From IMG/VR virus record IMGVR_UViG_3300025312_000002, positions 1 through 64,000 of that record: DNA of 64,000 nucleotides; one strand, 5' to 3'. The notes under the pieces were generated by a model. The model was not told the origin of the DNA, made no database searches, and saw only the letters and a list, made by a program, of their open reading frames with translations. A program made the position numbers and the translations under genes. The DNA comes from a virus. Below, in pieces: positions 709 through 56,128 of the stretch. The number at the start of each line of letters is the position of its first letter. Position 1 is the first letter of the stretch.

Positions 709-3700
709 AGAATCCTTTCAAAAGGGATTGTAAAATCGTTTCTAACAGGTCAATTTTAGACGATCTTACAATTCTCGATCTCTATTGTGAAGAATTTCCT
801 AATGCACAAGAGGTTACTATATCAGTAAATGGGAAAACCATTGCTTCAGCTCAATGGGAGTATGTGCGTATTAAAGAAGGAGATGAAATTTTAGTTGTTC
901 CTGATATTCAAGGAGGAGGGGACGGTAAAAATCCTCTTGGATCAATTTTAATGATTGTTGTTGCTGCCGTTGCAATCTATACAGGGCAATATTATTTATT
1001 GAAGTATCCTGGTGAATACTTCATGGCTGCTGTTATTACTACATCAATAATGACAGTAGGCTCTAAGTTAGTAAATGCAATTGCTCCAAATACTCCTCCT
1101 TCTCAAACAATGGACGCTTTAGATACAAATTCTTCTCAGACATACTCTTGGAGCCCACAAACTGTTCAACAACAAGGTATTGTAATTCCTAGAATATATG
1201 GATTAAATAAAGTTTATGGAAATGTCATTACAGGATTCCTTGAAAGCACAGGAAATAATTACACAGCTAAGGTTTTAATAGGGCTTGGGTGTGGGCCTAT
1301 CAATAAAGTTTATGATTATAAACTAAATGATCAATTAGTAAAAACGAGTGAAAACGGAGTAGCTTCAACTAATTTTGATGGAACAGAAATCTATGTAAAG
1401 CTTGGAACAGTAAATCAAACGGTTATTCCTGCATTTAATGACACAAAAATAGAGTTTGTTGTTTCTAACGGATTATTACAGTATAATACAGCTTATACAT
1501 ACACAACAAACGGATCTACTTTTGATGGTTTAGAAATTGATGTTTCTTTTCCTCAAGGTCTTTATCATTTTACAGATGCAGGAACATATGAAAATTATTC
1601 TGTTGATGTAAAGGTGGAGATTAAAAAGCAAGGGGATGTTTCTTGGACAAATATCAGCTCTTCTTGGCTTTCTACTGCAACTGTTACAGACGGGGAAGTA
1701 TCAGGAAGATGGTCAAAAGGATATTGGTTTGTAGTGGATGAAGACCCATACTATATATGGGTTGAAAAGGGAATAGATACTAATGTTTATGAAGATCATT
1801 CAGACGGAGAAGCAACGGGAGAGACAGAAAACGGAACTCCTTTGATTTGGTCGTGGGTAAAAGGAAGTATTTACAGTACAGCGGATCTTGTAGTAGGACA
1901 AAATGATTATGCTACTTTACAAGGGAATAAATCAACTTCAATAACAAAAAAATTTATAGCTAAAAGTCTTCCTCATGGAATTTATGATATAAAAGTAACA
2001 AGATTAACAACAGAAAATACTGATATTCGGTATGGGGATAAACTTCATTTTCCAATGGTTAGAGAAGTTTATTATGATGATTTTTCTTATCCTCGGATTG
2101 CTTTAGTTGGAATCAAATCTCTTGCAACACAGCAAATATCAGGCTCATTGAGATTTTCTTGTTTAGTTGAAGGTTTGAAATGTAGGGTTTATAATTCAAG
2201 CACAAGCACATGGAGTGTTGCTTATACAAATAATCCTGCTTGGGTTTGTTGGGATATTCTTACTCAGCCTGTTTTTAATGAGAATGAAACAGTAAATAGA
2301 TATGATGGATATAATCCCGCTTATCTTGATCTTATCAAATTTGCTGAATGGGCTGATTGGTGTGATGAAATTGTAGTAGGAACAAAACGAATTACATTTA
2401 ACGGAATATTTGATAGTCAATTTGATGTTTGGGCTGCTGTTCTTAAAGTATGTGAAACAGGCAGAGCAATTCCTATTTGGAATGGAACTAATATTACGAT
2501 TGTTATTGATAAGGCAGGAACAGAAACACAGCTATTTACAATAGGGAATATAGGAGTTGATTCATTTAAAGAGGTATTTCTTTCTGAAGCTGAACGAGCA
2601 GGAGAAATTGAAATTGATTTTATTAATAGTGAACGGGATTATGAAAAGGATAAATATACTTTAATAAATACAACAATAGGAAAACCTAGTAATAAAGCAT
2701 CAATACAGATGATGGGCATAACTTCTCCTTTAGAAGCTTGGAGAGCTGCTAAATACAAATTGCTTTGTAATCAATATCTTTTGAGGATGATTGAATTTAA
2801 TGCCGATGTTGATGCTATTGCTTGTACTGTAGGGGATATTGTTAGAGTAGGGCATTCTGTTCCTGCGTGGGGAACAGGAGGAAGGGTTGTTTCAGCAACA
2901 ACAAATACTATTACATTGGATCAATCTGTGACGATTGAAGCAGGACATACTTATGAAATACTTGTGAAATTATCTGATGACTCAATTGCTGATAAGGTCA
3001 TTGCTACTTCTATTGCTGGAAACTATACAACTTTAACAATAAGTGGAACATTTGCAACAATTCCTTCTCAGTTTGATGTTTTTACATTTGGAGAAACAAG
3101 CATTTCTTATAAGCCTTTTAGAATTATTGGGATGAGGAAAACTGCTGATCTGCGAATAACTCTTACAGGCATTGAATATAATGAATTAATTTATGATGGA
3201 GATGGAGAGTCTTATATTCAGCCTGCAAATAATTATTCTTCGTTAGAGCCTTTTGTGCAGGTGACTAATTTACAGTTGATGCAGGAAGTAGCTGTTGATA
3301 ATTCAGAAGCATTGATTGCTAATATTACAGCCTTTTGGGCAGTAGGTGATAACACAATATATTCAGGAGCAAAGGTTTATGTTAGAGAAGTACAAGTTGA
3401 TGGGTCTTATACTAATTGGCAATTTGATGGAGAAACAAGAACAACTTCATATCGGGTTAAGAATGTTGTTTTAAGTAAAACATATCAAATTGGAGTTTTA
3501 GGAATTAATTTTACAGGATTAACAGTTCCGTTCACGAGTATTGTAACAGCAAATATTACAATCCAAAGTGATCCTTCGTTCTTTTCAGAGTTTTTGAAGA
3601 AAAGAGTTTCAGGGCTTCAGTTAATTGATGATCCTAACGGAGATGAATTTGACGGGAAGGATTGTAAAATACAATGGAATTCTGTTTCGGGAGTTGATAT

Positions 3701-4364: not shown

Positions 4365-7300
4365 CCTGGGTTAATGTAGAAAATGTATATCCAAACTCTC
4401 ATCTTTTTCATAAGGAATTGTTTTGGGTTGATAAAAACTGTAATTGCTATTTTGCTTTCAAATTGAATGAGGTTGATGATTGGACATTTTATGCAGGCAA
4501 TGCTGCTCATGCTTTAGATACAGGAAGCTACCTTACTTCATATGGAACATCTGAAGCTTTAGCACAAACAAACTACTTAACGACAGTTAGAGATAGCAAT
4601 GGGAAAGTGTTGGCTATCCTTCCTGCTAATTTTCAAGCAAAGTATGTAAGGATTTACATTGAATCAGGGAATACTACTACTATACATGAATGGCAGCCTT
4701 CAATATATATTACAGCACATGAGATTATATCTGGAACATTAGAAATCACTGATCTATTAACAGACGCTCCCTTAATTAAAGTAGTTGCTTCTTCTATTGA
4801 CAGAATTAAAATAGGAAAAGTAGGTTCTGCTTATGGGTTATTTGGATATGACGGGTCAAGTAATAAAGTATTTGAAATTTCTGATTCCTTAATTAATATT
4901 GCAGGATGGTCAATAAATGCAGCTTACTTAGCTAAGGACACGGGGATTGATTCTACATCTTCAGGCATGTCACCTACTGATTTTCCTTTTTATGCAGGTT
5001 CCACTTATGCTAATAGAGCTACAGCACCTTTTAGAGTAGAACCTTCAGGAGCTTTGACTGCAACTTCAGCAACTATATCAGGAACGATAACTGCAACTTT
5101 AGGATATGTTGGAGGGTGGGTTGTTGATGCCACATCTATTAAAGATGCTGCTGGTACAGTCGGGTTATCGTCTGCTGTTACAGGAGGAGATGACATACGG
5201 TTTTTTGCAGGCCATATCACACCTGCTTCTGCTCCTTTTAAAGTAACTGAGGCAGGTGTTCTTACTGCTACTTCGGGAAATATAGGGGGTTGGTCTTTAG
5301 GAGCAACTTCTTTGACAGGAACGGGAATTACATTCTCAAGTACAGGAGATGCTTATTTAGCTATTGGGACAACTCCTCCGACATCACCAACTGTTGGAAC
5401 AGGAATTTTTATTAATAAGACAGGGCTATTTGGATTAAATGCAAATAACCCAAGATTTAAAATACTTGAAGACGGATCAGGTTTTCTTGGAGCTTCAGAT
5501 GTTTTATCTTGGACTACTGCTGGGGTTACTTCCCTTTCTGGCTTTGGGCTCACTGCTTCTGATTTGACAAAAACAGCTTCAGGGAATACTACAATAGTTT
5601 CTTCTGGAGCAACAGCATTTACAGCCGGTCCGACAGGTTCGCCAACATTTACTGTTACCCAAGCAGGTGTTCTTACTGCTACTTCGGGATATATAGGTGG
5701 AGCTACAAACGGATGGGCAATAACAGCAGGATTATTGACTGCTATAGGAACAGGAATTATTCAAACTTCTGCAACAGCGAACACAGGAATCAAACTAGAT
5801 TCTACTTCTATTAGAGGATATAATGGAACTGCTCAAACAATAAACATTGCTGCTGATGGTTCTGGATGGTTAGGGTTGACAGGAACACGAGCATTGTCGT
5901 GGACAACTGCTGGTGTTGCTACTATCGGTGGTTACACAACAACAGCAACAGCTTTATATGCAGGCACAACTTCTACAAGAATACAATTGGACACTACTGC
6001 CGGTATTCACTTAGGCGCAACTGCTTTTGCTGACGCTCCCTTTAGGGTGTCGTTAGCAGGTGATTTAGTTGCAACATCAGCTAATATCACAGGAATAATA
6101 ACAGCAACTTCTGGCTCTTTTACTGGAACAGTCAATGCTACTTTTGGCAAATTCGGAACATCGACAAATTATTGGGGCGTTGGTGCAACTGGATTAACTG
6201 CGACTTCAGCATCTACAGATGTAATAATCAATTATGGAAAAACAGATTTTGATAATACCATTTCTGGATTTATTTTGGGGTATGACTTCTCTGCATCAGC
6301 AGCTAAATTCTATGTTGGTGATGCAACTTCTTATCTGAATTGGGATGGAACAGCTTTAACTTATACTAAAGGTACATTAATTGAAACTATTATCCAAATG
6401 TACACTTCTGTTGCTTCATTAGCTACTTCTGCAACTGCTGGTGATGGATCAGCTAATTCGGCTGGAATCAAGATTACTTATGAGGGATTGTTCGGATGTG
6501 GAGCAAATCAGACGGCTACTTTGGCAGCAGCAAATGCTAATGTGAGAATATTGGCAACGGGGGCTGCAATCCTAACTGATGTTACTTTAACAACTTCAGC
6601 AGTAAACGCAATCACAGTTAATTATGGTTCTAATGTTTTATTGAAAGAGGGGGGGTCACTTCGTTTTACTTCTGTAGCTGCACCAGGTGCTTGCACAGCA
6701 ACTTTAGTAGCAACAGGAACAGGCAACGTCACTGACGGAAGCCACGAGTATTGTATCACATTTGTAACTGCAACTGGAGAAACTAGTATAGGAACAACGT
6801 CTAACTCGGTTACTGTTGATGCTTCCCATAAACAGATAGACTTAACAAGCATTCCTGTTAGTAGTTCCTCTTCTGTTACAGCGAGGAAGATTTACCGGAC
6901 TTTAGCAGGAGGTTCAATACATTTTTATCTTGCGACTATTAGTGATAACACAACTACTGTTTATACGGATAATATTGCAGACGGTAGTTTGGGGACATAT
7001 TCGTGGGATACAAGACAAAACGATACATTCGGCAAAATAATTAATGATTCAATTGAGGTTTTTAGTGTTGGAAGCACAAACACCCTTTTGGGGTATAATA
7101 CAGCACAGGCAACAAATCTTGGGAAGAATATAACTTTTATAGGAGCAAATGCAGGATATTCTAATACTATAGGTGGTGCTTCGGTTGCTGTTGGCGGAAA
7201 TGCTCTTTATTATAACATTACAGGCAATTATAATGCTTGTGTTGGTTATGATTCTTTAAAAAAAGCAACTGCTTCGGGCAATGCTGCTATTGGTGCTTAT

Positions 7301-7797: not shown

Positions 7798-8139
7798 TTA
7801 TTCTTCCTTTCTAAGTTTTTTTACATAGTTAATGATGCTCCATTCAGTAAGAGGAGTAAAGAGGTCTTGATTCCCTACATAACAATCTTCACCCATCATA
7901 TAAAGCCATTGCCATTCTTCATTAATTTTTGCTTTAGCTTGAGCATGAGAAATTGTTTGAGGAAATGCTTTTGTTGGGCCAGTAACAATAATTGTTTCAT
8001 ATTTTTCAGCAGCTTCAAGAGCACAATAAACAGCTCGATTTCTGCAATTTCCAAGCGGATCAAAAAGGATAGGGTGATTGCATCCAATAGTGATAATAAC
8101 AGTAATCAAAGCAAAAACAACAATCATAGCTTTTTTCAT
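7798..8139 (-). CDS. Putative lipoprotein (moron-like, antisense to tail genes)
   Basis: MKK + hydrophobic stretch + lipobox-like TIGC. Confidence 0.55.
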   Translation of the reverse strand: MKKAMIVVFALITVIITIGCNHPILFDPLGNCRNRAVYCALEAAEKYETIIVTGPTKAFPQTISHAQAKAKINEEWQWLYMMGEDCYVGNQDLFTPLTEWSIINYVKKLRKEE

Positions 8140-11786: not shown

Positions 11787-12230
11787 ATGGGAATATCATT
11801 AGCAAATTTAGATATTGGCGGTTTGTTTAGCGGCATAGGAACTTTGGCAAAAGATATTCGTACCGCCATAACTGGCAAAGAACCGATTAGCTCCGATAAA
11901 GCAGCCGAAATTTCCCTTAAGCTCGCGGAGCTGGAAGGCAAGATAGAGGAAGGCAGGGTGTCCGTTCTCGTCGCAGAAGCTTCCTCAAGTGATAAATTTA
12001 CCTCCCGCGCAAGACCATCTTTCATGTACGTTTTTTATATAGTTGTTCTATGTCTGACATTAGCAGCTCCATTCGTAGGGGTATTCTTCCCTGCACAGAT
12101 GATAAAATTTTATGCTAATGTTCAGTACGGATTTAAGGCTATCCCTGATATTATGTGGCAAACATTTGGTGTCGGATACCTCGGATATGTGGCCGCAAGA
12201 GAATACGGCAAAACTAAAGGTAATGGTTAA
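11787..12230 (+). CDS. Holin (3TM / GTA-type family)
   Basis: AEA.S...F..RARP motif, TM helices, GYLGY...R..GK end; adjacent to endolysin. Confidence 0.8.
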   Translation: MGISLANLDIGGLFSGIGTLAKDIRTAITGKEPISSDKAAEISLKLAELEGKIEEGRVSVLVAEASSSDKFTSRARPSFMYVFYIVVLCLTLAAPFVGVFFPAQMIKFYANVQYGFKAIPDIMWQTFGVGYLGYVAAREYGKTKGNG

Positions 12231-47141: not shown

Positions 47142-47380
47142 TTCATTTCTCCTTTTACATCTCAATATAAAGCGTTTTTAAATAGCTGTCAGTTCTTCTG
47201 AATGGATCAGACAGATCACCCTCTTTTGATCGGACAAGGCATTTTTCTTTTCATATTGACAAAAGACAGGATTAAAATTCCCGATCGCTTCTGCTCGGAG
47301 CACTCGCTTTATTGTTTTTATGAGTTCTCCGGGTTCAAAATAGTTTTCTCCTTTTTTCCGAACTTCTACAGTATGGCGTT

Positions 47381-47860
47381 TCATATTTTTCTCTCCTTCT
47401 CTTTAAGGTTGGCTTTTCCTTTCTTTACTTTGAAAATAGGATAAGGAGCTTTCCCACTTTCAAACCAATCATCACCAAAACAATAAGTTTTAGGCCCAAG
47501 ATTATCAGGAGACATTAAATCCCCTGCACCAGGAGCACAGGGAGAACAATAAGCACAACGGGTGTAGAAAGGTGATCTGAGTATGAAAATATCCATATCA
47601 TCATAATCCTGGGTGCAAATGTAGCCTTCTTTTTCATACTGAAAACCGTCTGCTTCACAATCAGGACACTCGTCATATTGAACATCACCACTACTGTCGG
47701 GCTTGTGTTCACAGTTTCCACAAATGTAAATAGGTTCTGAACTATCTGCCCACACTTGAAGAACTTCCTTTTGGTTAATAACTCCATAATGAATAATTCC
47801 TGTTTTTACATCTACATTTGTTGTTCCATTTCCATAGTGATCTACAAGTTCTTTTTTCAT
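47381..47860 (-). CDS. Cys-rich conserved phage protein (CSPCAPGAGD motif)
   Basis: TGI.YGVI, SP.YT.C..CSPC.PGAG.L; start after repeated RBS element. Confidence 0.7.
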   Translation of the reverse strand: MKKELVDHYGNGTTNVDVKTGIIHYGVINQKEVLQVWADSSEPIYICGNCEHKPDSSGDVQYDECPDCEADGFQYEKEGYICTQDYDDMDIFILRSPFYTRCAYCSPCAPGAGDLMSPDNLGPKTYCFGDDWFESGKAPYPIFKVKKGKANLKEKERKI

Positions 47861-47941
47861 TTTTATTCTCTCCTTCTCTTTATTGGGAACGTAAATGTTC
47901 CAGCGAATTGCAAAAGTTTCCCTTTGCAATTCAAGCAACAT

Positions 47942-48220
47942 TTACAGACTCTTTAGAACCCAGGACAGGAAATATTTGAGCCACTCAAAACCTTTTGGAG
48001 CAGAAACACTTATTCCTGTTCTTACTTTTCCATCATGACAAAGTACAGCAGTTGAATAATTCTTCCAAAGAGCATAATTTTTGTTGAGTGTATAATACCT
48101 ATACAAGATTTTCCCGTAGTAAATCTTTTTGTGGTTTGCATGTAAAACTATTTTCATTCCTTTTGGGTAAAGAGCTGAACTTATTTTATGCCAATTTTTA
48201 TTTCTTGCTTTATGTTCCAT
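47942..48220 (-). CDS. Hypothetical protein
   Basis: GGAGGAGAGG RBS. Confidence 0.55.
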   Translation of the reverse strand: MEHKARNKNWHKISSALYPKGMKIVLHANHKKIYYGKILYRYYTLNKNYALWKNYSTAVLCHDGKVRTGISVSAPKGFEWLKYFLSWVLKSL

Positions 48221-48234
48221 TTTCCTCTCCTCCT

Positions 48235-48447
48235 TTAAAACATTGAATGAAGTAGGTCCAGGAAGTCCTGGGCTTCTTGCTGTGAATTAAAACCCCCAAA
48301 ATTGAAGCTGTTAGTTTCATTGTACCAACCTTTAACACTCCAGATTCCGGGATAGGCGGCACTTTCTTCCACAGTAAACTCCTTGAGCTTTGCCAGAACA
48401 ACACTGGCTGTTTTCTTTCTGTTCCATGCTACTCTCTGTTTTAGCAT
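48235..48447 (-). CDS. Hypothetical protein
   Basis: Start MLKQ after repeated leader element. Confidence 0.6.
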   Translation of the reverse strand: MLKQRVAWNRKKTASVVLAKLKEFTVEESAAYPGIWSVKGWYNETNSFNFGGFNSQQEAQDFLDLLHSMF

Positions 48448-48528
48448 TTTCTCTCCTATTCTTTTGTTGGGAACATAAGTGTTCCAGGAAAAGCACATCT
48501 GTTTCTTGATATGCTTAACCCGCAGCAC

Positions 48529-48735
48529 TTATATTACTGACGATTCTTCTAAAATAAAATCAGGACATTGTTTTCTAAGCTTCTTGTGGAATGCTTTTTC
48601 TTTCATCGAGGAAGATGTTTGTATTGGCATTGTACTTCCTTCCTGATAAACAGCAATGTATAATCCCATTTCATACTGCTGAGTAATGAACTTGTTTTTT
48701 CCATCAGGAGCAGGAATAACGGTTATCATGGACAT
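48529..48735 (-). CDS. Hypothetical protein
   Basis: AAGGAG RBS before MSMI. Confidence 0.55.
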   Translation of the reverse strand: MSMITVIPAPDGKNKFITQQYEMGLYIAVYQEGSTMPIQTSSSMKEKAFHKKLRKQCPDFILEESSVI

Positions 48736-48789
48736 TTCTTTTCTCCTTTCTTGAATCATAAATTTCCCAGGGAAATCTAAATAACATCC

Positions 48790-49233
48790 TTATGGCATCA
48801 AACCTTCTTCTCGAAAACTAAAAACTGCATCATCTAAACCCAAAATGATATGATCATACACACTAATATCCAGTGCTTTTGCAACATCCGCAATCTGTTT
48901 GGTCATCCGAATATCAGATTCAGATGGGCGTAAGTGACCAGAAGGATGATTGTGTACAAGGATCATGGCACATGAGCAGGAAACAATGCTTGTTTTTATG
49001 ACTTCTCTTGGGTAAATACCAGCTTGATTTAATGAACCAACAGCCACTTGCACACAATTCAGCACATTTTGTGCATTTAGATGGAGAACAATGAATTTTT
49101 CTACATCAGAATCTTGCAATGATCTACAAAAGTTTAGTGTATCTTTAGTAGTTCCAAGAGTTTCTCGATTGTATGGAAAATCCTGCTCCCTAACCATTCT
49201 TGTTTGCAACTTTACAGCATACTTGGTTGTCAT
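48790..49233 (-). CDS. RadC-like JAB-domain protein
   Basis: E.F.VL.L, YPREV, HNHPSG...PS..D, DHIILG. Confidence 0.9.
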   Translation of the reverse strand: MTTKYAVKLQTRMVREQDFPYNRETLGTTKDTLNFCRSLQDSDVEKFIVLHLNAQNVLNCVQVAVGSLNQAGIYPREVIKTSIVSCSCAMILVHNHPSGHLRPSESDIRMTKQIADVAKALDISVYDHIILGLDDAVFSFREEGLMP

Positions 49234-49314
49234 TTTTCTCTCCTTCTCTTTAGTTAGTCCTTAATTGGACTATCAAGCTCTCTACTCCTCCAAGTAAAGA
49301 GCAAGACACTACAA

Positions 49315-50151
49315 TTAATGAACCATCTCAAACGCTCTTGCAATAGCAGGTTCCAATTCAGCTCTTCTTACTTCTGAAGTAACATTGTGGGTTACAAACT
49401 GTGTTAAAACAGAATTGAAATCCCACATTGTAGCTTCACCTTGAGAAATTGCATCAGGTAAAAGCAGATTTGAAGAAATCTCCGGCAATTTTTCGATTTT
49501 TTCCTTTTCTCCTCCAGAAAAGGGAAGAGCCTCCCACATAGCTTGATATGTATCAGCCGTCAATTTCTTTTCAGCCCACTGCTTCCACAATCCTACTTGA
49601 TCGGAATAGGATTGCATTCCGTCTTGTATGCTTTTTGTTAATTGTTCGGGATCAAGTGATAGGATGTGACGCTTGGCAAACTTGCTGAAAGTTTTACCTA
49701 CTGCCATCCCGTTTGAACACACAATCCTGAAAGCTCCAAACATCGAAATATATTTCCAACCTAAATCGTAGGATGTCCGGATTGTGATTTGGGGGTTAAC
49801 AAAATCATCTTTTTTAATCTCATACTTTGTATCACCCATTAAAGCTTTGATTGACATCTTGCCTCCATCAGCAATAATATTGGGTTCAACTGTGATTGTC
49901 CCAAATTCAGGAAGTTTAGCTACAGAATCTTCCACCATTTTGATAATATCTTCATAGTGGACAACTCTGTACTGATCAGAACAAATTCCAAACACAGTGT
50001 TTGTGTTCTGATCTACAATAGCTTTCTTTCCATCAATCCTGAATTCAGGACGCTTCCCAAACCAAACAGGCTCCAATACAGGATCAGGAAATTCTAGTGT
50101 TGCATACCTTGTTCTTACTTCCATTCTTTGTTCTTGTGTTAAACTTTCCAT
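49315..50151 (-). CDS. DUF932/DUF945-like phage early protein
   Basis: S..Y..V, SYD, FRIVCSNG, T.W...N..T motifs. Confidence 0.75.
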   Translation of the reverse strand: MESLTQEQRMEVRTRYATLEFPDPVLEPVWFGKRPEFRIDGKKAIVDQNTNTVFGICSDQYRVVHYEDIIKMVEDSVAKLPEFGTITVEPNIIADGGKMSIKALMGDTKYEIKKDDFVNPQITIRTSYDLGWKYISMFGAFRIVCSNGMAVGKTFSKFAKRHILSLDPEQLTKSIQDGMQSYSDQVGLWKQWAEKKLTADTYQAMWEALPFSGGEKEKIEKLPEISSNLLLPDAISQGEATMWDFNSVLTQFVTHNVTSEVRRAELEPAIARAFEMVH

Positions 50152-50246
50152 TTTTCTCTCCTTTTCTTTAAATTGTTTTTACACCTCCAGCAAGACTTTG
50201 GACTTGCTTGTGCATTAGCAGGAATTTTGCTATTCCTGCCCATCTG

Positions 50247-50969
50247 CTATTCAGTTACTGTGCTAAGTACATGAATTGTTCTTGCTCTCCATTTGTTGCC
50301 TGCTTTGTGAATATCAATTATTCTGGCTTTTACTTTAATAATTTCATCCCTATTCCAGTCAAAAGCAGCTTGATAAGAAGGCCAAAGGTACCAACCGGGA
50401 TGGCATTCTGTATCTGCTGTGGAAAATACTTCACATCCGTAGATTCGATCATTAACTAAAAATTTTCCTGCTATTGGAGAAGTTCTTAATCTATATCCAA
50501 ACACATAAGCATCATCCACTTCTTTGAAATCAGAAACATCAGCATTTGGAATATTATTCGGATCAAGGCAGGTTTTTTCTAAGTTTGCACCCCACAAGTC
50601 TGCATTCCGCAAGTTTGCACCCCACAAGTTTGCATTCTGCAAGTTTGCATTCTGCAAGTCCGCATTCCGCAAGTTTGCACCCCACAAGTCTGCATTCCGA
50701 AAGTTTGCATTCTGCAAGTCCGCATTCCGCAAGTTTGCACCCCACAAGTCTGCATTCTGCAAGTTTGCATTCTGCAAGTCTGCATTCTGCAAGTTTGCAT
50801 TCCGAAAGTCTGCACCCCACAAGTCTGCATTCTGCAAGTTTGCATTCTGCAAGTCTGCATTCTGCAAGTTTGCATTCCGAAAGTTTGCATTCTGCAAGTT
50901 TGCATTCCGCAAGTCTGCTTCCGGCACACTAAAAAGCACTGCTCCAGTATTTTTATGCTTGATTTCCAT
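50247..50969 (-). CDS. Pentapeptide-repeat protein with C-terminal C..G(W/I)Y domain
   Basis: 15-bp tandem repeats encoding A[DN]L[QRW][NG]; CHPGWY...KWRA tail. Confidence 0.9.
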   Translation of the reverse strand: MEIKHKNTGAVLFSVPEADLRNANLQNANFRNANLQNADLQNANLQNADLWGADFRNANLQNADLQNANLQNADLWGANLRNADLQNANFRNADLWGANLRNADLQNANLQNANLWGANLRNADLWGANLEKTCLDPNNIPNADVSDFKEVDDAYVFGYRLRTSPIAGKFLVNDRIYGCEVFSTADTECHPGWYLWPSYQAAFDWNRDEIIKVKARIIDIHKAGNKWRARTIHVLSTVTE

Positions 50970-51068
50970 TTTTCTCTCCTTTTCTTTAAATTGTTTTTAC
51001 ACCTCCAGCAAGACTTTGGACTTGCTTGTGCATTAACAGGCTGTTTCCACAGCCTGCCCATCTGCTAT

Positions 51069-51509
51069 TTATTTGTTGATTGGAAAATGTTTTTGCTTTT
51101 CCTTTACTGCTTGGATAAACAGTAAATACAAAGCAATACGTTCTTTTGGTGTGTTGTGGGGGGTGAGTATTTTCTCAATAGAGGAATCCCATTCCTCTAT
51201 TGAGTGTATTTCACACCCTATTTTCACAAACCCTTGGGAATATTCATTTGCTATGAATATTCCACTGCTCACTAATATGCTGTTGTTTTTTCTAACAACA
51301 ACATTATTGCCAAGCTCAACATTATTGCCAAGCTCAACATAATTGCCAAGCTTAACACCTTTGCCAAGCTTAACACCTTCGCCAAGCTCAACATAATTGC
51401 CAAGCTTAACACCTTTGCCAAGCTTAACACCTTTGCCAAGCTTAACACCTTCGCCAAGCTTAACATCTACTACATCTCCACCAGGATTCGTGTGCTTCTT
51501 GTTTTCCAT
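51069..51509 (-). CDS. Hexapeptide-repeat (left-handed beta-helix) protein
   Basis: 18-bp repeats encoding V[KE]LG[KEN][GYN]; IGC..H...W tail. Confidence 0.8.
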   Translation of the reverse strand: MENKKHTNPGGDVVDVKLGEGVKLGKGVKLGKGVKLGNYVELGEGVKLGKGVKLGNYVELGNNVELGNNVVVRKNNSILVSSGIFIANEYSQGFVKIGCEIHSIEEWDSSIEKILTPHNTPKERIALYLLFIQAVKEKQKHFPINK

Positions 51510-51583
51510 TTTTCTCTCCTTTTCTTTATGAAGCAGAATTGCTCCAGCAAATGCTCCTCCGAGAAGGAGCATTTAAGCAACAA

Positions 51584-52210
51584 TCATGCAACCGTTCCTT
51601 TGTAAATCCCATGTACATCCTTAACAATCGTAATTCCATGCAACTTTTTAAGATCATCAAAATGGCGCATAGTTCTCATCCAAAGGTCATAATCAGGTAA
51701 AGCATTCTTATTCAACCCAACATCATTGATGTGCTTTAGAATGTCCACTTTGGACATCCCTGCTTGTAAACAAACATCAATAGCAGCCGCTTGTGTTCCT
51801 TCAACATGACCAAATCCTACCTTAACACGCCCAGAAGGTCTTCCTGTTCCTGTTTTCGACGCTTTCGGAGCTGATTTTGCTGCTTTCGATTGTAAAGCAC
51901 ATTCCGAAGTTTTTGCTTTGCAGACAGCCGTCGTATCAGGAAAATCTTTTTCGCAGGCGGAACAGTACTTAGAATCAGGATTATAACACTTAACATCCTT
52001 ACCCCATTCATCCTGCAATTCTTGACAAGCATTACTTGGGCATTCCTGATTTGCAGAATTTTCCGAGGAAGTCTCGTCAACAACCTTTGGAGGCAGAGCA
52101 TTTTCAGCGGTTGTAACTGCAAGCTGAATCCGCTCAAGAGTCCAAAACTTACTGACTTTAATTCCAAGTTCATCTGCACGATCCATCAACTTCTTTTTCG
52201 CTTCATCCAT
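51584..52210 (-). CDS. Modular hypothetical protein (small helical domain, Cys4 domain, FGHV.GT domain)
   Basis: A.ELGI N-terminus; C...WG...C..C...C; C-terminus resembles 34811-35476. Confidence 0.65.
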   Translation of the reverse strand: MDEAKKKLMDRADELGIKVSKFWTLERIQLAVTTAENALPPKVVDETSSENSANQECPSNACQELQDEWGKDVKCYNPDSKYCSACEKDFPDTTAVCKAKTSECALQSKAAKSAPKASKTGTGRPSGRVKVGFGHVEGTQAAAIDVCLQAGMSKVDILKHINDVGLNKNALPDYDLWMRTMRHFDDLKKLHGITIVKDVHGIYKGTVA

Positions 52211-52292
52211 TTTCTCTCCTTTTCTTTAGTTTTGGAGTATAATTACTCCATCAATTCCTCTATCCCAAAGGATAAAGGAAAAGATGCAATCT

Positions 52293-53009
52293 TCATGCTC
52301 CGAGCTGTGCAGCAGACTTTGAATTTCCATTGCCTATTGGACGTGACAAATTAACTCTGTGTCCATCATCTCGACCTCTTGAATAAGCAGCCGAATCTTT
52401 CCCGATAGAGATACTTGTCATCTTGAGGTTTGGGTATTGCTCCTTCATAAATGAATCCAACTCCTTACCTTTGACAACCATCAACTCTTTACAATCACTC
52501 GGGATAAACTCTTCCCTACGCGCAAAGAGATCATCCAACCTATCCTTTAAAGTCATAGTCATCCCAAAAGCGTAAGTGTTAGCAGAATTTTTGTTGGAAT
52601 AATATTTGCTTTCACTCATTTTTCCAACAGTCCTTCTCAGGTATTGGAAAAAGAAGATTGCAACATCCAAATCACCTTTCGTTCCCAGAAAGGAGAAGCC
52701 CCAAATGTTTTTTACCCATTCAGTTCTTCCAACAATCTTACAATCAAAAACTTTTGCAATACATCCTGCAAGATTGAATTCCCAATTCACTCTGACACCC
52801 TCAGCTCCATCAACATCAATTTTGACAAAGTTCTCCGATTTGTTGATATTAGCTTTGAGATCAGCAAATTCCAGGGAATAATCAGCCATAAGCTTTGCTG
52901 CCATTCTTTTTGCGCTTTCAGCTTCATTGCTATTGGAATTCTTATCATCATTCCCAAGCTCCAACAACTTCAAAACCTTTTGGATCATTTCTTGCTTCTT
53001 GTTTTCCAT
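52293..53009 (-). CDS. DUF2786-like protein
   Basis: KV.KLL.L...EA..A...A.KLM..Y and AY.RG..DG motifs. Confidence 0.75.
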   Translation of the reverse strand: MENKKQEMIQKVLKLLELGNDDKNSNSNEAESAKRMAAKLMADYSLEFADLKANINKSENFVKIDVDGAEGVRVNWEFNLAGCIAKVFDCKIVGRTEWVKNIWGFSFLGTKGDLDVAIFFFQYLRRTVGKMSESKYYSNKNSANTYAFGMTMTLKDRLDDLFARREEFIPSDCKELMVVKGKELDSFMKEQYPNLKMTSISIGKDSAAYSRGRDDGHRVNLSRPIGNGNSKSAAQLGA

Positions 53010-53088
53010 CTTTTCTCTCCTTTTCTTTAGTGGAACATAATCGTTCCAGAATTGCTTCATACCTTAGCATGAAACAACTCCGCAATGA

Positions 53089-53205
53089 TTACTTTTGGAT
53101 GATTTTGTAAATGAAATATGCAAGTACATAGCTGATTCCAAACAGAACCAGAAAAGCAAGACTGTAGCCCATAATCACTTTACTGCAAAGCATTGTGTTT
53201 TCCAT
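53089..53205 (-). CDS. Small membrane peptide
   Basis: GGGAG RBS; hydrophobic helix. Confidence 0.45.
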   Translation of the reverse strand: MENTMLCSKVIMGYSLAFLVLFGISYVLAYFIYKIIQK

Positions 53206-53207
53206 TG

Positions 53208-53387
53208 CTATTCTCCCAGGGTCTGTGCAAGGCCATTTATTTTCCGACACTCTTCTTGAACAACAGGGTGCCAAACAGGATTGATTTCTGAGCCAACGAC
53301 ATATTCCTTGTGAGCCCACATTCTGAATTGTTTTTCCTCTTTGTTCGACAAACTACGAAACATTGGATTATTACTTTTGTATTCCAT
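53208..53387 (-). CDS. Conserved small phage protein (FR.L...E...FR.WA...WHPV...EC)
   Basis: First gene of the leftward arm; repeated RBS. Confidence 0.65.
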   Translation of the reverse strand: MEYKSNNPMFRSLSNKEEKQFRMWAHKEYVVGSEINPVWHPVVQEECRKINGLAQTLGE

Positions 53388-54039
53388 TTTTCTCTCCTTT
53401 TCTTTTTCATAAGTTTCCCAGGACAATTACTGTAATTGTCCTTTTGGGATTCAAGCACCTCAATAGACATCCGAAAAGATGTATATTCAAGAACTTGGGA
53501 TATGAACTCTATCTAAGCAGTTCATACCCTTCAGCCCCAAAGAAAAAAGAGAGAGAAAACCCTACCCATCATGTTGTTCCTTCCTTCCGGTTCGCTGCAA
53601 GCTCAAAAACTTTAAGAAAACCTTTGGAAATCCTGTCAATTCAGGCGCATTCTCGGGAAACTACCCTTCCCTGCTTTGGATCAATTTTGTTGTAGGACGG
53701 GACTCAGGCTCACTGGAGGCTACTGCCTGACGACATAAAAGGGAAACAATGTCATCATCCCCTTATGGGTGCAAGCTGTTTATTCAGGAAAAAATCCTTA
53801 TTGACAACTTACAGAATGAGAAAGACAATTGAAGTGGGCAGCACGATTATTACCTGTTTCACCCTTACTTACATGGGAAAGTGTTATCCTGTATCTCATG
53901 TTTTCATGAGCGCTGATAATAATCTAAAGAGCCTTGACTATGACACGGATAAAGTGTCATAGGAACGTGTCAATCGCACGTCCTATAATTGATAACCTCT
54001 TAAAATATTGACTATCAATTACCTATCTAATATACGCCC

Positions 54040-54075
54040 TATATATATATAGTCTATTTCGTTGTCAAGCGTTTT
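54040..54075 (-). promoter_or_regulatory. Leftward early sigma70-type promoter
   Basis: AAAACGC-TTGACA-N17-TATATA. Confidence 0.6.
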
Positions 54076-54247
54076 TTTTACTTTCCTTAGTATTTCTTTT
54101 GGAGCTCAATTATTTCCTATACATAGCAAGGTTTATGGGCTTCTAATATAACAAATTCCGAACTCGTAAAAACCCCAGCAAAATTACACAATTTACCCTT
54201 TGCTCCACTTCTCGGCCCTGAATTCCTGCTCCAAAACCTGAAAATGC

Positions 54248-54344
54248 AAGCTGCTAACTTATTGATTTTGCTAAGATATAAAATGCATAGCAAAATCAAT
54301 AAGTTAGCAGCTTATGAATAAAATCAATAAGTTAGCAGCTTATG
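54248..54344. repeat. 26-bp perfect inverted repeat plus 25-bp direct repeat, each copy containing an IHF-consensus site
   Basis: Arms 54248-54273 and 54288-54313; direct copies 54292-54316 and 54320-54344; AATCAATAAGTTA fits WATCAANNNNTTR. Confidence 0.8.
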
Positions 54345-54388
54345 TCCAGTATAGCCCCTAGCTATAAAAAATATATCAAAATGCAAAG

Positions 54389-54424
54389 AAAACGCTTGAC
54401 ATCCTATATAATAGCATGATAAAG
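54389..54424 (+). promoter_or_regulatory. Rightward sigma70-type promoter
   Basis: AAAACGC-TTGACA (same 13-mer as the leftward promoter); -10 element less clear. Confidence 0.45.
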
Positions 54425-54583
54425 GAAAAGCGTAAAAAATAATGATCTTTGACAATAAGCTTTTGATTGCAAGAAACTGCACTCAGAACGATATATTGAG
54501 AAAGGAAACAAGCAAGCTCTAAATGCTTGCAAAAGCCTTTTTACGATACTGTATAAACAAACTATGAGAAAAGGGGAAAAATC

Positions 54584-54925
54584 ATGACAAAAATCGTAAA
54601 AAGAGGCGAAAAAGGGAATTTGATTGTCGTATCAGGTGATGCTAGTGATAATGCGATTAGAGCGTTTTTTTCTAAAGCGTCTGTTACTAACTATAGACTC
54701 AAAGAAACCTCTAAAGTGAGCCAATGCAGTGTCATTAATAACATGATCAAGGCTGAGAAAAAAATTTCTGAGATTGCAACAAAATTGATCAGTATGAAGT
54801 TATTCCCTGCTAATCCTGAAAAGTACGAAGGGCAGGAAGAAACAAGGATTTTTAAAGCTTGCGTGCAAAGAGTCAACACGCACTTAGCAGCAAGCAGAGC
54901 AAGGGGAATTGATTTGAGAGCATAG
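54584..54925 (+). CDS. Isolated basic hypothetical protein
   Basis: AAGGGG RBS, upstream promoter, downstream terminator. Confidence 0.65.
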   Translation: MTKIVKRGEKGNLIVVSGDASDNAIRAFFSKASVTNYRLKETSKVSQCSVINNMIKAEKKISEIATKLISMKLFPANPEKYEGQEETRIFKACVQRVNTHLAASRARGIDLRA

Positions 54926-54933
54926 AGTAAACT

Positions 54934-54973
54934 AGGGTAATATCAAAGATAAATGATATTGCCCTTTTTCTTT
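54934..54973 (+). terminator. Rho-independent terminator
   Basis: AGGGTAATATCA / TGATATTGCCCT stem followed by T-tract. Confidence 0.8.
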
Positions 54974-55605
54974 GCCTAAAAAACAGGAAAAGAAGACCTC
55001 ATAAACACCTAAAATTAGCAATTCTTGACAACAAACCTAAGCATAAAACAGGGTAAACGATAGAAGACAAAGGTAAGAAAAAATAAAGCCTTTAAGGGGC
55101 ATTAGAATTGATTGCCCTCTGTATTGCAGTGATAGCAAGGATTGTAGAAGGTAAAAAACGAGGTAAATTTGAGTTATCAACAGCCTAAAACAGCCTAAAA
55201 CAGTAAACTACCCTCTTAAAGGCACTTTTAAGGCGCGGGATAGGCTAATATAGCTAATAGATAGCTGCAAAGAAAATAGAGAAAAGCTCAGGTCTAAAAG
55301 AAGGAAAAGAGTAAAAGGGGAAGCATAAGAGTAAAAGGGAATAGATACTGAGAAGAAAAGGAAAGATCGTAAAAGCTTTTGAAGAAGTGATGCTAAGAGA
55401 AATGTAAAAGAGAAAATATAAATGTAAAAGAGAAATGACTAAGCAAAATGCTTGAGAGTCTTTTTCCCCTTCTTTTATCCTGTTCTTCATTCCAGAATAG
55501 CATAATGATATATATTTGATAGTCAAGGCAGGGTAAAAAACAAAAAACCTAGTAATATCAATGAAGTTTACATAATGTATCTTATAGGACGCAACATCTA
55601 AGTCC

Positions 55606-55674
55606 CTGTTATCATTACCTTAGTGTTTAACTGTCTGTTATCATTCCCTTCGTATCTAACTATCTGTTATCATT
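55606..55674. repeat. Three CTGTTATCATT repeats at 29-bp period
   Basis: Copies at 55606, 55635, 55664. Confidence 0.75.
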
Positions 55675-56128
55675 AGCTTTCCACCCCCCTCGATCTATCT
55701 GGATATGGGGGCGGAAGTTTTTTCAGACAGGGACCACCCCACAATTTATTTCCCATTACTACTAGCCCTTCTTACCTATTCCGTTCTATTAAAAGGAGTA
55801 AAACCATACTCTACTATCTAGAGCAATACATCTATTCCCGACTCAATATAAGATTCCCAGAACAGAAAAGAAACAATTGCTTCTATCTCCTCTACTGCTC
55901 TGTTTGGAACAATGTATATTCCAATTGCATAGAACACTTAAAAATGAAACCCAAAGACAATAAAATAAAAGAGCTTAAAATACTCAACCTTCCCCTCTGT
56001 AGTTTGCAAAATTTTATTTCTTTAAATCAAGCACTTACAAACGGGTCATTTTTACCTGTTATCCTTTTTCACTATCGTTAATTTTAACGGAAATGCAGTT
56101 TTATGATATAATGCTTTTACAGGAAGAT

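Follow-up and report, generated by a model that had tools for sequence, protein, structure and literature searches.

The small early genes of the phage recorded as IMGVR_UViG_3300025312_000002 in IMG/VR are separated, on the mRNA (minus) strand, by copies of a rod-shaped RNA element (hereafter the rod) that is genuine, widespread and uncatalogued. The stretch analysed, referred to below as the window, comprises bases 1 to 64,000 of this complete 82,511-bp virus record with direct terminal repeats. Six double-hairpin junctions of its leftward operon are copies of one RNA family on the mRNA strand (see Table 1). We favour, with moderate confidence, the view that the rod is an intercistronic signal for mRNA processing and stabilisation, which would probably be cut by a double-strand-specific RNase of the host. 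The element is best filed with the intercistronic processing signals of phage early operons, with a modest chance that it is something more unusual.

Structure of the six junctions

Read on the minus strand, each of the six units consists of a stop codon, the bases U-G-C, a first hairpin (hairpin 1), the bases CUGG, a second hairpin (hairpin 2) and an A-rich leader containing GGAG. Units of this kind had been described from inspection of the sequence alone (hereafter the sequence-only reading), and all the arm sequences quoted there are present. The two hairpins had been taken as neighbours; folding each unit from stop codon to start codon revealed a different arrangement. The minimum-free-energy (MFE) structure of all six contains a lower stem, P1, in which the stop codon and ca. 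5 nucleotides (nt), followed by U-G-C, pair with C-U-G-G-A and the "loop" of hairpin 2. P1 and hairpin 1 together form an irregular rod of ca. 22 pairs whose base is the upstream stop codon. Midway along the rod two Gs always face each other, between a U-A (or A-U) pair on one side and a C-G (or U-A) pair on the other. The TTGC previously noted after the stop codon is indeed there, but as part of this conserved core, i.e. of the U-A pair, the G.G mismatch and the C-G pair. Because the 3' strand of P1 is reused by hairpin 2, the rod and hairpin 2 are mutually exclusive, and hairpin 2, the 5' arm and loop of which pair with the stop-codon region in P1, is an alternative fold. All six units fit this family in its four features, namely the number of pairs, the G.G mismatch, the lower stem anchored at the stop codon and the alternative hairpin. 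Pairing between 5' and 3' flanks had a mean of -7.7 kcal/mol for cognate combinations (n=6) versus -4.1 for non-cognate ones (n=30). When the covariance model R2 (see below) was run with filters off on both strands of the 64-kb window, the six junctions ranked first to sixth with E-values from 1.8e-14 to 0.036, the seventh match having an E-value of 0.37.

Table 1. Elements of the leftward early operon (R1 and R2, covariance models described in the text; positions are those of the window).
Feature	Position	Strand	Evidence and remarks
Candidate sigma-70-type early promoter(s) of the leftward operon	54029..54068	-	ca. 640 nt upstream of the first start codon; TTGACA read; one consensus match, 54056-54029
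Degenerate copy before the first early gene; no upstream open reading frame	53385..53460	-	read and folded; R2 only 9.7 bits
Junction U2: stop codon, rod (P1, G.G core, hairpin 1), alternative hairpin 2, leader, start codon of the DUF2786/DUF7168 gene	53007..53091	-	MFE fold; R1 19.4 bits; R2 20.5 bits, E 0.001
Junction U3: rod unit with weak lower stem	52208..52295	-	fold; R2 15.9 bits, E 0.036, sixth-best match in the window; missed by R1 at E ≤ 0.1
Junction U4: rod unit upstream of the hexapeptide-repeat gene	51507..51586	-	fold; R1 58 bits; R2 51.5 bits
Twister-P5 self-cleaving ribozyme after the hexapeptide gene, then the same leader	51009..51066	-	Rfam RF02684, 49.6 bits
Twister-P5 ribozyme after the pentapeptide gene, starting with the AG of the TAG stop codon	50191..50248	-	RF02684, 48.0 bits
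Junction U7: rod unit after the DUF932 gene; pairs beside G.G swapped (A-U, U-A)	49231..49317	-	fold; R2 16.5 bits, E 0.023, fifth-best match in the window
Degenerate short copy after the RadC gene: single 9-bp hairpin, CUGG at its tip, leader variant	48733..48792	-	fold; no R1 or R2 match
Junction U9: rod unit	48445..48531	-	fold; R1 22.7 bits; R2 43.2 bits
Junction U11: rod unit	47858..47944	-	R1 42.4 bits; R2 51.9 bits, top match in the window
Leader-only copy within the coding 3' end of the 159-aa gene; stop/start overlap ATGA; no hairpins	47382..47405	-	pattern match

The six units (47300-53600) match no Rfam 15 family at E ≤ 10, including twister, twister-sister, pistol, hatchet, hammerhead and RAGATH, entries of the last kind being part of Rfam 15 according to PMC13085918. 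Likewise, no Rfam family matches the 13 rod copies of the related locus L036 (see below), nor, at E ≤ 1, the rods of loci L043, L045, L051 and L055. Searches of Rfam 15 and of the literature, outside the supplementary motif lists of ribozyme surveys (e.g. PMC5737381), did not find the rod motif in print. Several known motifs were also considered for the six units. A hammerhead core was rejected because CUGAUGA and GAAA are absent, a kink-turn for lack of a tandem G.A, a tRNA-like or RNase P substrate on geometry (by eye), and a sigma-54-like or sigma-70 promoter within CUGGAAC..UUAU by eye and by a consensus scan.

Conservation of the rod in related phages

Relatives were collected through the DUF932 protein, which has many homologues on contigs of 80-94 kb; an alignment of 28 of these retrieved 19 viral and 80 metagenome loci (99 in total, labelled L followed by three digits). 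A pairing-based Python descriptor found look-alikes of the double-hairpin unit in many of them. Eighteen copies of equal length, aligned without gaps, served to build the covariance model R1 (58 positions, 22 pairs), and the second model, R2, was built from 54 matches. At E ≤ 0.1, R1 has 67 matches in the 876,240 bases of the window and the 99 loci (both strands). Sixty of these are full-length on the gene strand (58 distinct) and come from 14 sources, the other seven being weak antisense or partial matches. The sense matches are distributed over L048 (15), L036 (13), L043 (7), L051 (6), the window (4), L011 (3), L045, L047, L049 and L066 (2 each) and L029, L042, L050 and L055 (1 each). In the complete genomes G000 and G001, rod matches are confined to the early region.

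Covariation, which the sequence-only reading had noted among the copies of hairpin 2 in this one genome, is real and extends beyond it. In 53 distinct copies from 13 sources, changes on both sides occur in 22 of the 22 modelled pairs and 93.0% of the cells are paired; the covariation score is 0.855, as against 0.255 for shuffled alignments (none of 500 shuffles attains 0.855), and sliding the 3' partners gives no more than 0.128. The seed alignment of 18 copies gives the same picture. Among 1259 cells, 114 are G.U and 24 are A.C, and antisense scores are low, which together indicate that selection acts on the mRNA strand.

The core of the rod is nearly invariant in the same 53 copies, with the two mismatched Gs conserved in 50 (G12) and 52 (G46) copies and the adjacent C-G pair in 45 (C13) and 50 (G45). 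The internal loop next to the core has a U on its 5' side in 45 copies and on its 3' side in 50, a C-G pair inside hairpin 1 is kept almost throughout (C in 51, G in 50), and in three pairs of the rod the purine is always on the 5' strand. Distances are constrained as well: in 54 of the 58 distinct matches the stop codon of the upstream open reading frame (ORF) lies 5-16 nt before G12, at exactly 8 nt in 30 and at 7-9 nt in 42, and the spacing between G12 and G45 is 33 nt in 29 copies and 31-35 nt in 50.

Hairpin 2 is conserved too. It starts at the GG in 43 of 58 copies, 40 of which have at least 5 bp, as compared with a mean of 8.7 and a maximum of 15 in 200 chimeric controls; this set was not chosen for hairpin 2, the 3' arm of which is excluded from the models. 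In most of the remaining 15 copies hairpin 2 appears, by eye, shifted two bases downstream, and when the RNA from G45 onward was folded a hairpin began within the first 4 nt in 53 of 58 copies. In some copies the two folds are close in energy and the MFE structure is hairpin 1 plus hairpin 2.

A few rods (L045:463-567, L011:7158-7229 and L055:2064-2135) carry an insert of 35-53 nt in the apical loop of hairpin 1 while keeping a normal lower stem, G.G core and hairpin 2; one insert holds the word CUGAUGAG. No Rfam family matches those of L045 or L055 at E ≤ 1.

Rods and twisters at equivalent junctions

Two further junctions of the window are occupied by the self-cleaving ribozyme Twister-P5 (RF02684, gathering score 37.6 bits). 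They are the only gathering-level Rfam matches in the window and their long stem differs by compensatory changes in the alignments; both are of an ordinary, known ribozyme type. Rfam scans covering 42 of the 99 loci detected Twister-P5 arrays on the gene strand, with up to 13 copies. L010 has 13, L009 and L012 have 11 each, L011 has 7 and L005 has 2 (44 matches); a further 26 matches occur in L050 (8), L041 (6), L033 (5), L034 (4) and L037 (3), and L043, L045 and L055 have a single copy each. The same scans found no twister in L006, L007, L008, L013, L036, L051, L048 and 12 further loci, and single type II hammerheads in the more distant loci L016, L020 and L022.

Rods and twisters occur in the same operon in six sources, namely the window, L011, L043, L045, L050 and L055; the operons of L036 and L048 have rods only and those of L009, L010 and L012 twisters only. 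The slot just before the DUF932 orthologue holds a twister in 11 loci (the window, L005, L009 to L012, L033, L034, L037, L041 and L050) and a rod in nine (L036, L042, L043, L045, L047, L048, L049, L051 and L055), counts which include identical rod copies in L045/L055 and in L047/L048 and possibly some near-duplicate twister loci. The layout of the twister junctions is that of the rod: the stop codon lies against the ribozyme or shares its first bases, and is followed by a stable hairpin, the predicted cut (at the position that we take to be the twister cleavage site), a hairpin and an A-rich leader.

In two of the loci with neither element, the junctions were examined by eye. Those of L006 (e.g. 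2964-3095, 4957-5082, 7882-7976 and 12049-12150) have a repeated GCTTGCA, 16-18 nt and a TATAAT-like word, and those of L008 have a hairpin followed by a conserved AGAAGTT(A/C)AAT word. These repeats suggest one promoter per early gene. The common outcome of junctions with a rod, a twister or a hairpin and promoter would be one message per gene.

A proposed intercistronic processing signal and its alternatives

The sequence-only reading had offered two explanations, an RNA processing or stabilising motif and single-stranded DNA junctions for the exchange of genes. The first is the better supported, through the indirect evidence of the two twisters in the operon itself, of the twisters in orthologous slots of relatives and of the RNase III-like shape of the rod. 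On a polycistronic early mRNA the rod would work like the twisters of the operon, so that each cistron would end up on a stable message of its own. A single cut, in or close to the core and on the 3' side, would be made by an endoribonuclease specific for double strands, the simplest candidate being RNase III of the host. This would leave the upstream message with hairpin 1 at its end, right after the stop codon, and the freed 3' strand of the lower stem would refold into hairpin 2, releasing the downstream message and capping its new 5' end just before the A-rich leader with its strong ribosome-binding site. Both exclusive folds would be conserved because the proposed 3'-side cut frees the lower-stem strand to form hairpin 2.

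As far as shape is concerned, the rod, with 22 pairs, a 1x1 G.G mismatch and an internal loop, resembles an RNase III substrate. According to passages of one review, the idealised substrate has 22 bp, or two turns; mismatches, bulges or loops at the target lead to a cut in one strand only, leaving a stabilising 3' hairpin; and the early precursor of phage T7, ca. 7000 nt long, contains five RNase III signals (PMC3867540).

Several points weigh against this explanation. The cut, its place and its enzyme, and all else beyond formation of the rod, are what we infer from the observed fold, conservation, fixed position and positional equivalence with twisters. About 8 nt are conserved across phages whose DUF932 proteins are 30-50% identical, which is more than is usual for RNase III sites, the proximal boxes of which are called degenerate in a passage of the same review (PMC3867540), and which would be no less expected of a ribozyme core or of the site of a specific binding protein. 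The fixed distance between stop codon and core would also fit a ribosome switch that works without a cut. The phage itself encodes no RNase III as judged by PF14622 and PF00636 (both negative; other nuclease families were not screened), so that the enzyme would have to be that of the host. Finally, the covariation alignment was fitted to a model and its 18 seeds were chosen by a descriptor demanding pairing, so that its figures lean towards structure; strand, position and the invariant unpaired bases are signals independent of that selection.

A first alternative, which we regard as rather unlikely, is that the rod is a two-state switch or insulator operated by the ribosome without any cut. 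A terminating ribosome would melt the lower stem, upon which hairpin 2 would form and either shape the surroundings of the next ribosome-binding site, so as to couple or insulate translation, or protect the untranslated gap. Judged by how far ribosomes unwind mRNA beyond their A site, one that terminates here would open roughly the lower stem and nothing above it. The register between stop codon and core (5-16 nt in 54 of 58 copies, exactly 8 nt in 30), the conservation of two mutually exclusive folds and their near-equal energies in some copies, with hairpin 1 plus hairpin 2 as the MFE structure, all fit such a switch. Its predicted effect on the ribosome-binding site is nevertheless small, the mean unpaired probability of GGAG being 0.67 in the whole element and 0.79 when everything 5' of G45 is removed (n=56), and the 3' arm of hairpin 2 is complementary to GGAG in the copies of GGAG/CUCC type but not in the 17 of GGUG/CACC type. 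On these two grounds the 3' arm was rejected as an anti-Shine-Dalgarno sequence. Moreover, the twisters, which only cut, occupy the same slots.

The positional equivalence with twister also raises the question of catalysis by the rod itself. In this second alternative the rod would be a new class of small self-cleaving ribozyme that replaces twister, with the G.G mismatch, the C-G pair and the U.U loop as the active site, and with hairpin 2 driving product release. Besides the shared slots and operons, it is favoured by the near-invariant core, by stem lengths that are nearly fixed (G12-G45 spacing of 33 nt in 29 of 58 copies and of 31-35 nt in 50), by the lack of an Rfam match for the rod at E ≤ 10 and by precedent, since searching near known ribozymes has yielded classes before, three known classes having been found near twister and hammerhead according to passages of PMC5737381 and PMC6765202. 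Yet the rod is a single helix that lacks both a junction and a convincing pseudoknot from which an active site could be built, and the 4-6-nt loop of hairpin 2 cannot close its hairpin and pair fully with the stop region at once. Large apical inserts are tolerated (L045 463-567), so that a catalytic fold would have to rest on one small internal loop, and surveys may already have tested a motif of this kind and recorded it in their supplements. We therefore consider it unlikely that the rod is such a ribozyme. Equally unlikely, in our view, is the wider proposal that, in a widespread group of phages from soil and sediment, twister has given way at many gene junctions to a very small self-cleaving ribozyme not described before, or to one that folds under the control of the terminating ribosome.

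Third, the rod may be the repeated operator of a sequence-specific RNA-binding protein of phage or host, e.g. a global translational repressor of early genes, or the site of a phage hairpin-specific endoribonuclease. The G.G mismatch and the U-containing loop would place the core in a widened groove, the purine/pyrimidine orientation is kept in three pairs, the C-G pair inside hairpin 1 is near-invariant and a number of the small early proteins could not be placed in a family. On the other side, no candidate protein was identified, rod-bearing contigs are mostly fragments, and the element ends 20-40 nt before the ribosome-binding site. Such an operator seems quite improbable to us.

Fourth, each unit might be a plain intrinsic terminator followed by a promoter, as may be suggested by the position of hairpin 1 after the stop codon and by the hairpin and promoter-like repeats seen by eye in the junctions of L006 and L008. 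Between 47000 and 56200, however, none of 14 terminator-like and none of 36 promoter-like sites falls within the six junctions, and there is no U-run after hairpin 1 or after the rod. The units are not plain intrinsic terminators, a match to which would have counted against the sequence-only reading, and the combination with a promoter is extremely improbable.

Gene order and possible exchange at the junctions

The early genes are ordered differently in related phages. In the window the order is DUF2786, a 208-aa gene, hexapeptide, pentapeptide and DUF932, and in L032 it is the 208-aa gene, DUF2786, the 68-aa gene, DUF932 and the 159-aa gene. Four DNA sequencing runs of the source metagenomes yielded only low-depth contigs of the same phage together with short matches restricted to junctions. 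The latter lie at 50141-50175, 50215-50250, 51069-51113 and 47402/47843 of the window and continue into dissimilar sequence to either side; the junction modules are apparently also present in other phages of these samples.

A DNA-level role, as a recombination site or folded single strand that shuffles early genes in the manner of integron attC sites or of the PeSL (promoter-early stem-loop) cassettes of T4-type phages, could be proposed from this gene-by-gene difference in order and from the source-metagenome contigs that match only junction or leader pieces of 35-45 nt between unlike flanks. It is at odds with the strand asymmetry (the G.U excess over A.C and the weak antisense scores), with the tie to stop codons and ribosome-binding sites and with the interchange with a ribozyme, an element that acts as RNA only. 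The outer boxes of attC sites have the consensus RYYYAAC / GTTRRRY; no GTTRRRY-type box was seen by eye in the 3' strands of the six lower stems, and an attC site was rejected on that basis. As the junctions contain no sigma-70 promoter match, they are not PeSL-like either. The exchange of genes at single-stranded DNA structures, as it had been put forward, is thus not supported, and a DNA-level role of the rod is in our view very improbable. The shuffled order and the junction-only matches would fit an exchange of single-gene cassettes at conserved junctions, for which folded DNA would not be needed. Recombination at conserved junctions is a possible side effect.

Shared leaders and variant junctions

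The leader pattern TAAAGARAAGGAGAG, allowing 0-2 mismatches, has 14 matches in the whole window versus 0.99 expected, 10 of which are on the minus strand between 47391 and 53406. The exact leader was found in only 2 other viral contigs. In L011, L036, L048 and L009, each phage has its own near-identical long leader before all early genes, after rod or twister alike. Leaders shared within a phage suggest either homogenisation of the junctions within a genome or selection for one optimal leader.

Besides the six full units, which stand, the sequence-only reading had counted three variants; there are in fact four, the two Twister-P5 junctions and two degenerate copies, and in addition one leader-only copy (see Table 1). 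In the degenerate copy that precedes the first early gene, U-G-C-U-U and CUGG are kept around a different hairpin, with neither lower stem nor hairpin 2, and the same leader follows. The leader-only copy is a junction where the leader is used without any hairpin.

The early operon and its setting

The phage stems from soil, sediment and groundwater metagenomes, and the sequencing runs listed for it include none of RNA. Family searches identified it as a tailed phage, with a J-like tail tip and tail fibres encoded on the plus strand, and further revealed a family-A DNA polymerase fused to a UDG domain, DnaB-like and DnaD-like proteins, an SNF2 helicase, a large terminase, a portal and a protease. 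Within the phage record collection, neither the region under study as a DNA query nor the terminase as a protein query gave a match, and the SNF2 helicase as a single query retrieved no related viral locus.

The rod and twister junctions occupy the head of a long leftward operon that begins past an ORF-poor region at 53.5-56.1 kb. The first dozen leftward genes are small and include members of the DUF2786/DUF7168, hexapeptide-repeat, pentapeptide-repeat, DUF932 and RadC-type JAB families, while several of the small early proteins have no family assignment. This gene set (47178-53387, minus strand) resembles the anti-restriction and establishment genes of conjugative elements. The ORF-poor stretch of 2.6 kb (53470-56090) separates the divergent early and packaging operons and contains three direct copies of an 11-nt word at ca. 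55600-55690, short repeats at 55330-55430 and a direct-plus-inverted repeat of ca. 24 nt at 54260-54340. Promoters near 54030-54070 would give the first early gene an untranslated leader of ca. 640 nt.

Comparison with known systems

The early RNase III signals of T7, R0.3 to R1.3, resemble the rod in lying between the cistrons of a phage early operon and in shape, an irregular hairpin roughly two helical turns long that is interrupted halfway up by a mismatch or internal loop; in both, a single cut is expected that leaves a 3' hairpin on the upstream mRNA. The rod differs from them in having a stop codon as part of its stem, at a constant distance from the core, in keeping core nucleotides across distant phages and in conserving a second, exclusive hairpin; its enzyme and cut are, for their part, predicted ones. 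With the Twister-P5 and hammerhead arrays the rod has in common the operons, slots and strand, the layout of stop codon, hairpin, (cut), hairpin and leader, and an anti-restriction-like gene set. Unlike these ribozymes, it matches no ribozyme model and forms a single rod instead of a pseudoknotted multi-stem fold, and self-cleavage would be hypothetical. PeSL cassettes are similar in that a repeated module flanks each small early gene and gene order is shuffled among relatives. They differ in having a promoter, which the rod junctions lack, the conserved features of the latter being RNA pairings and not promoter boxes.

Arrays of self-cleaving ribozymes around single prophage genes, including the anti-restriction gene ardA flanked by hammerheads, were described in 2011, and it was proposed in the same paper that ribozymes cut long phage transcripts into gene-length mRNAs (PMC3088659). 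The function of bacterial and phage twister and hammerhead ribozymes is still called largely unknown and unproven in a passage of PMC6765202. In the phages studied here, orthologous junctions are taken now by twister and now by a second, unrelated RNA element, in some cases with both in the same operon. This alternation implies that what is selected is the outcome, most likely separate, end-capped single-gene messages with a standard leader, and not ribozyme chemistry as such. Rod and twister also form a matched pair of elements for direct experiment, and the rod, a natural part of only ca. 60 nt, may insulate operon genes and could represent either a new class of ribozyme or a nuclease site that is portable. 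The genes that it punctuates look like an anti-restriction or takeover set (DUF932, RadC-type JAB, pentapeptide repeat and DUF2786/DUF7168), and the element may therefore matter for the speed of protein production after infection.

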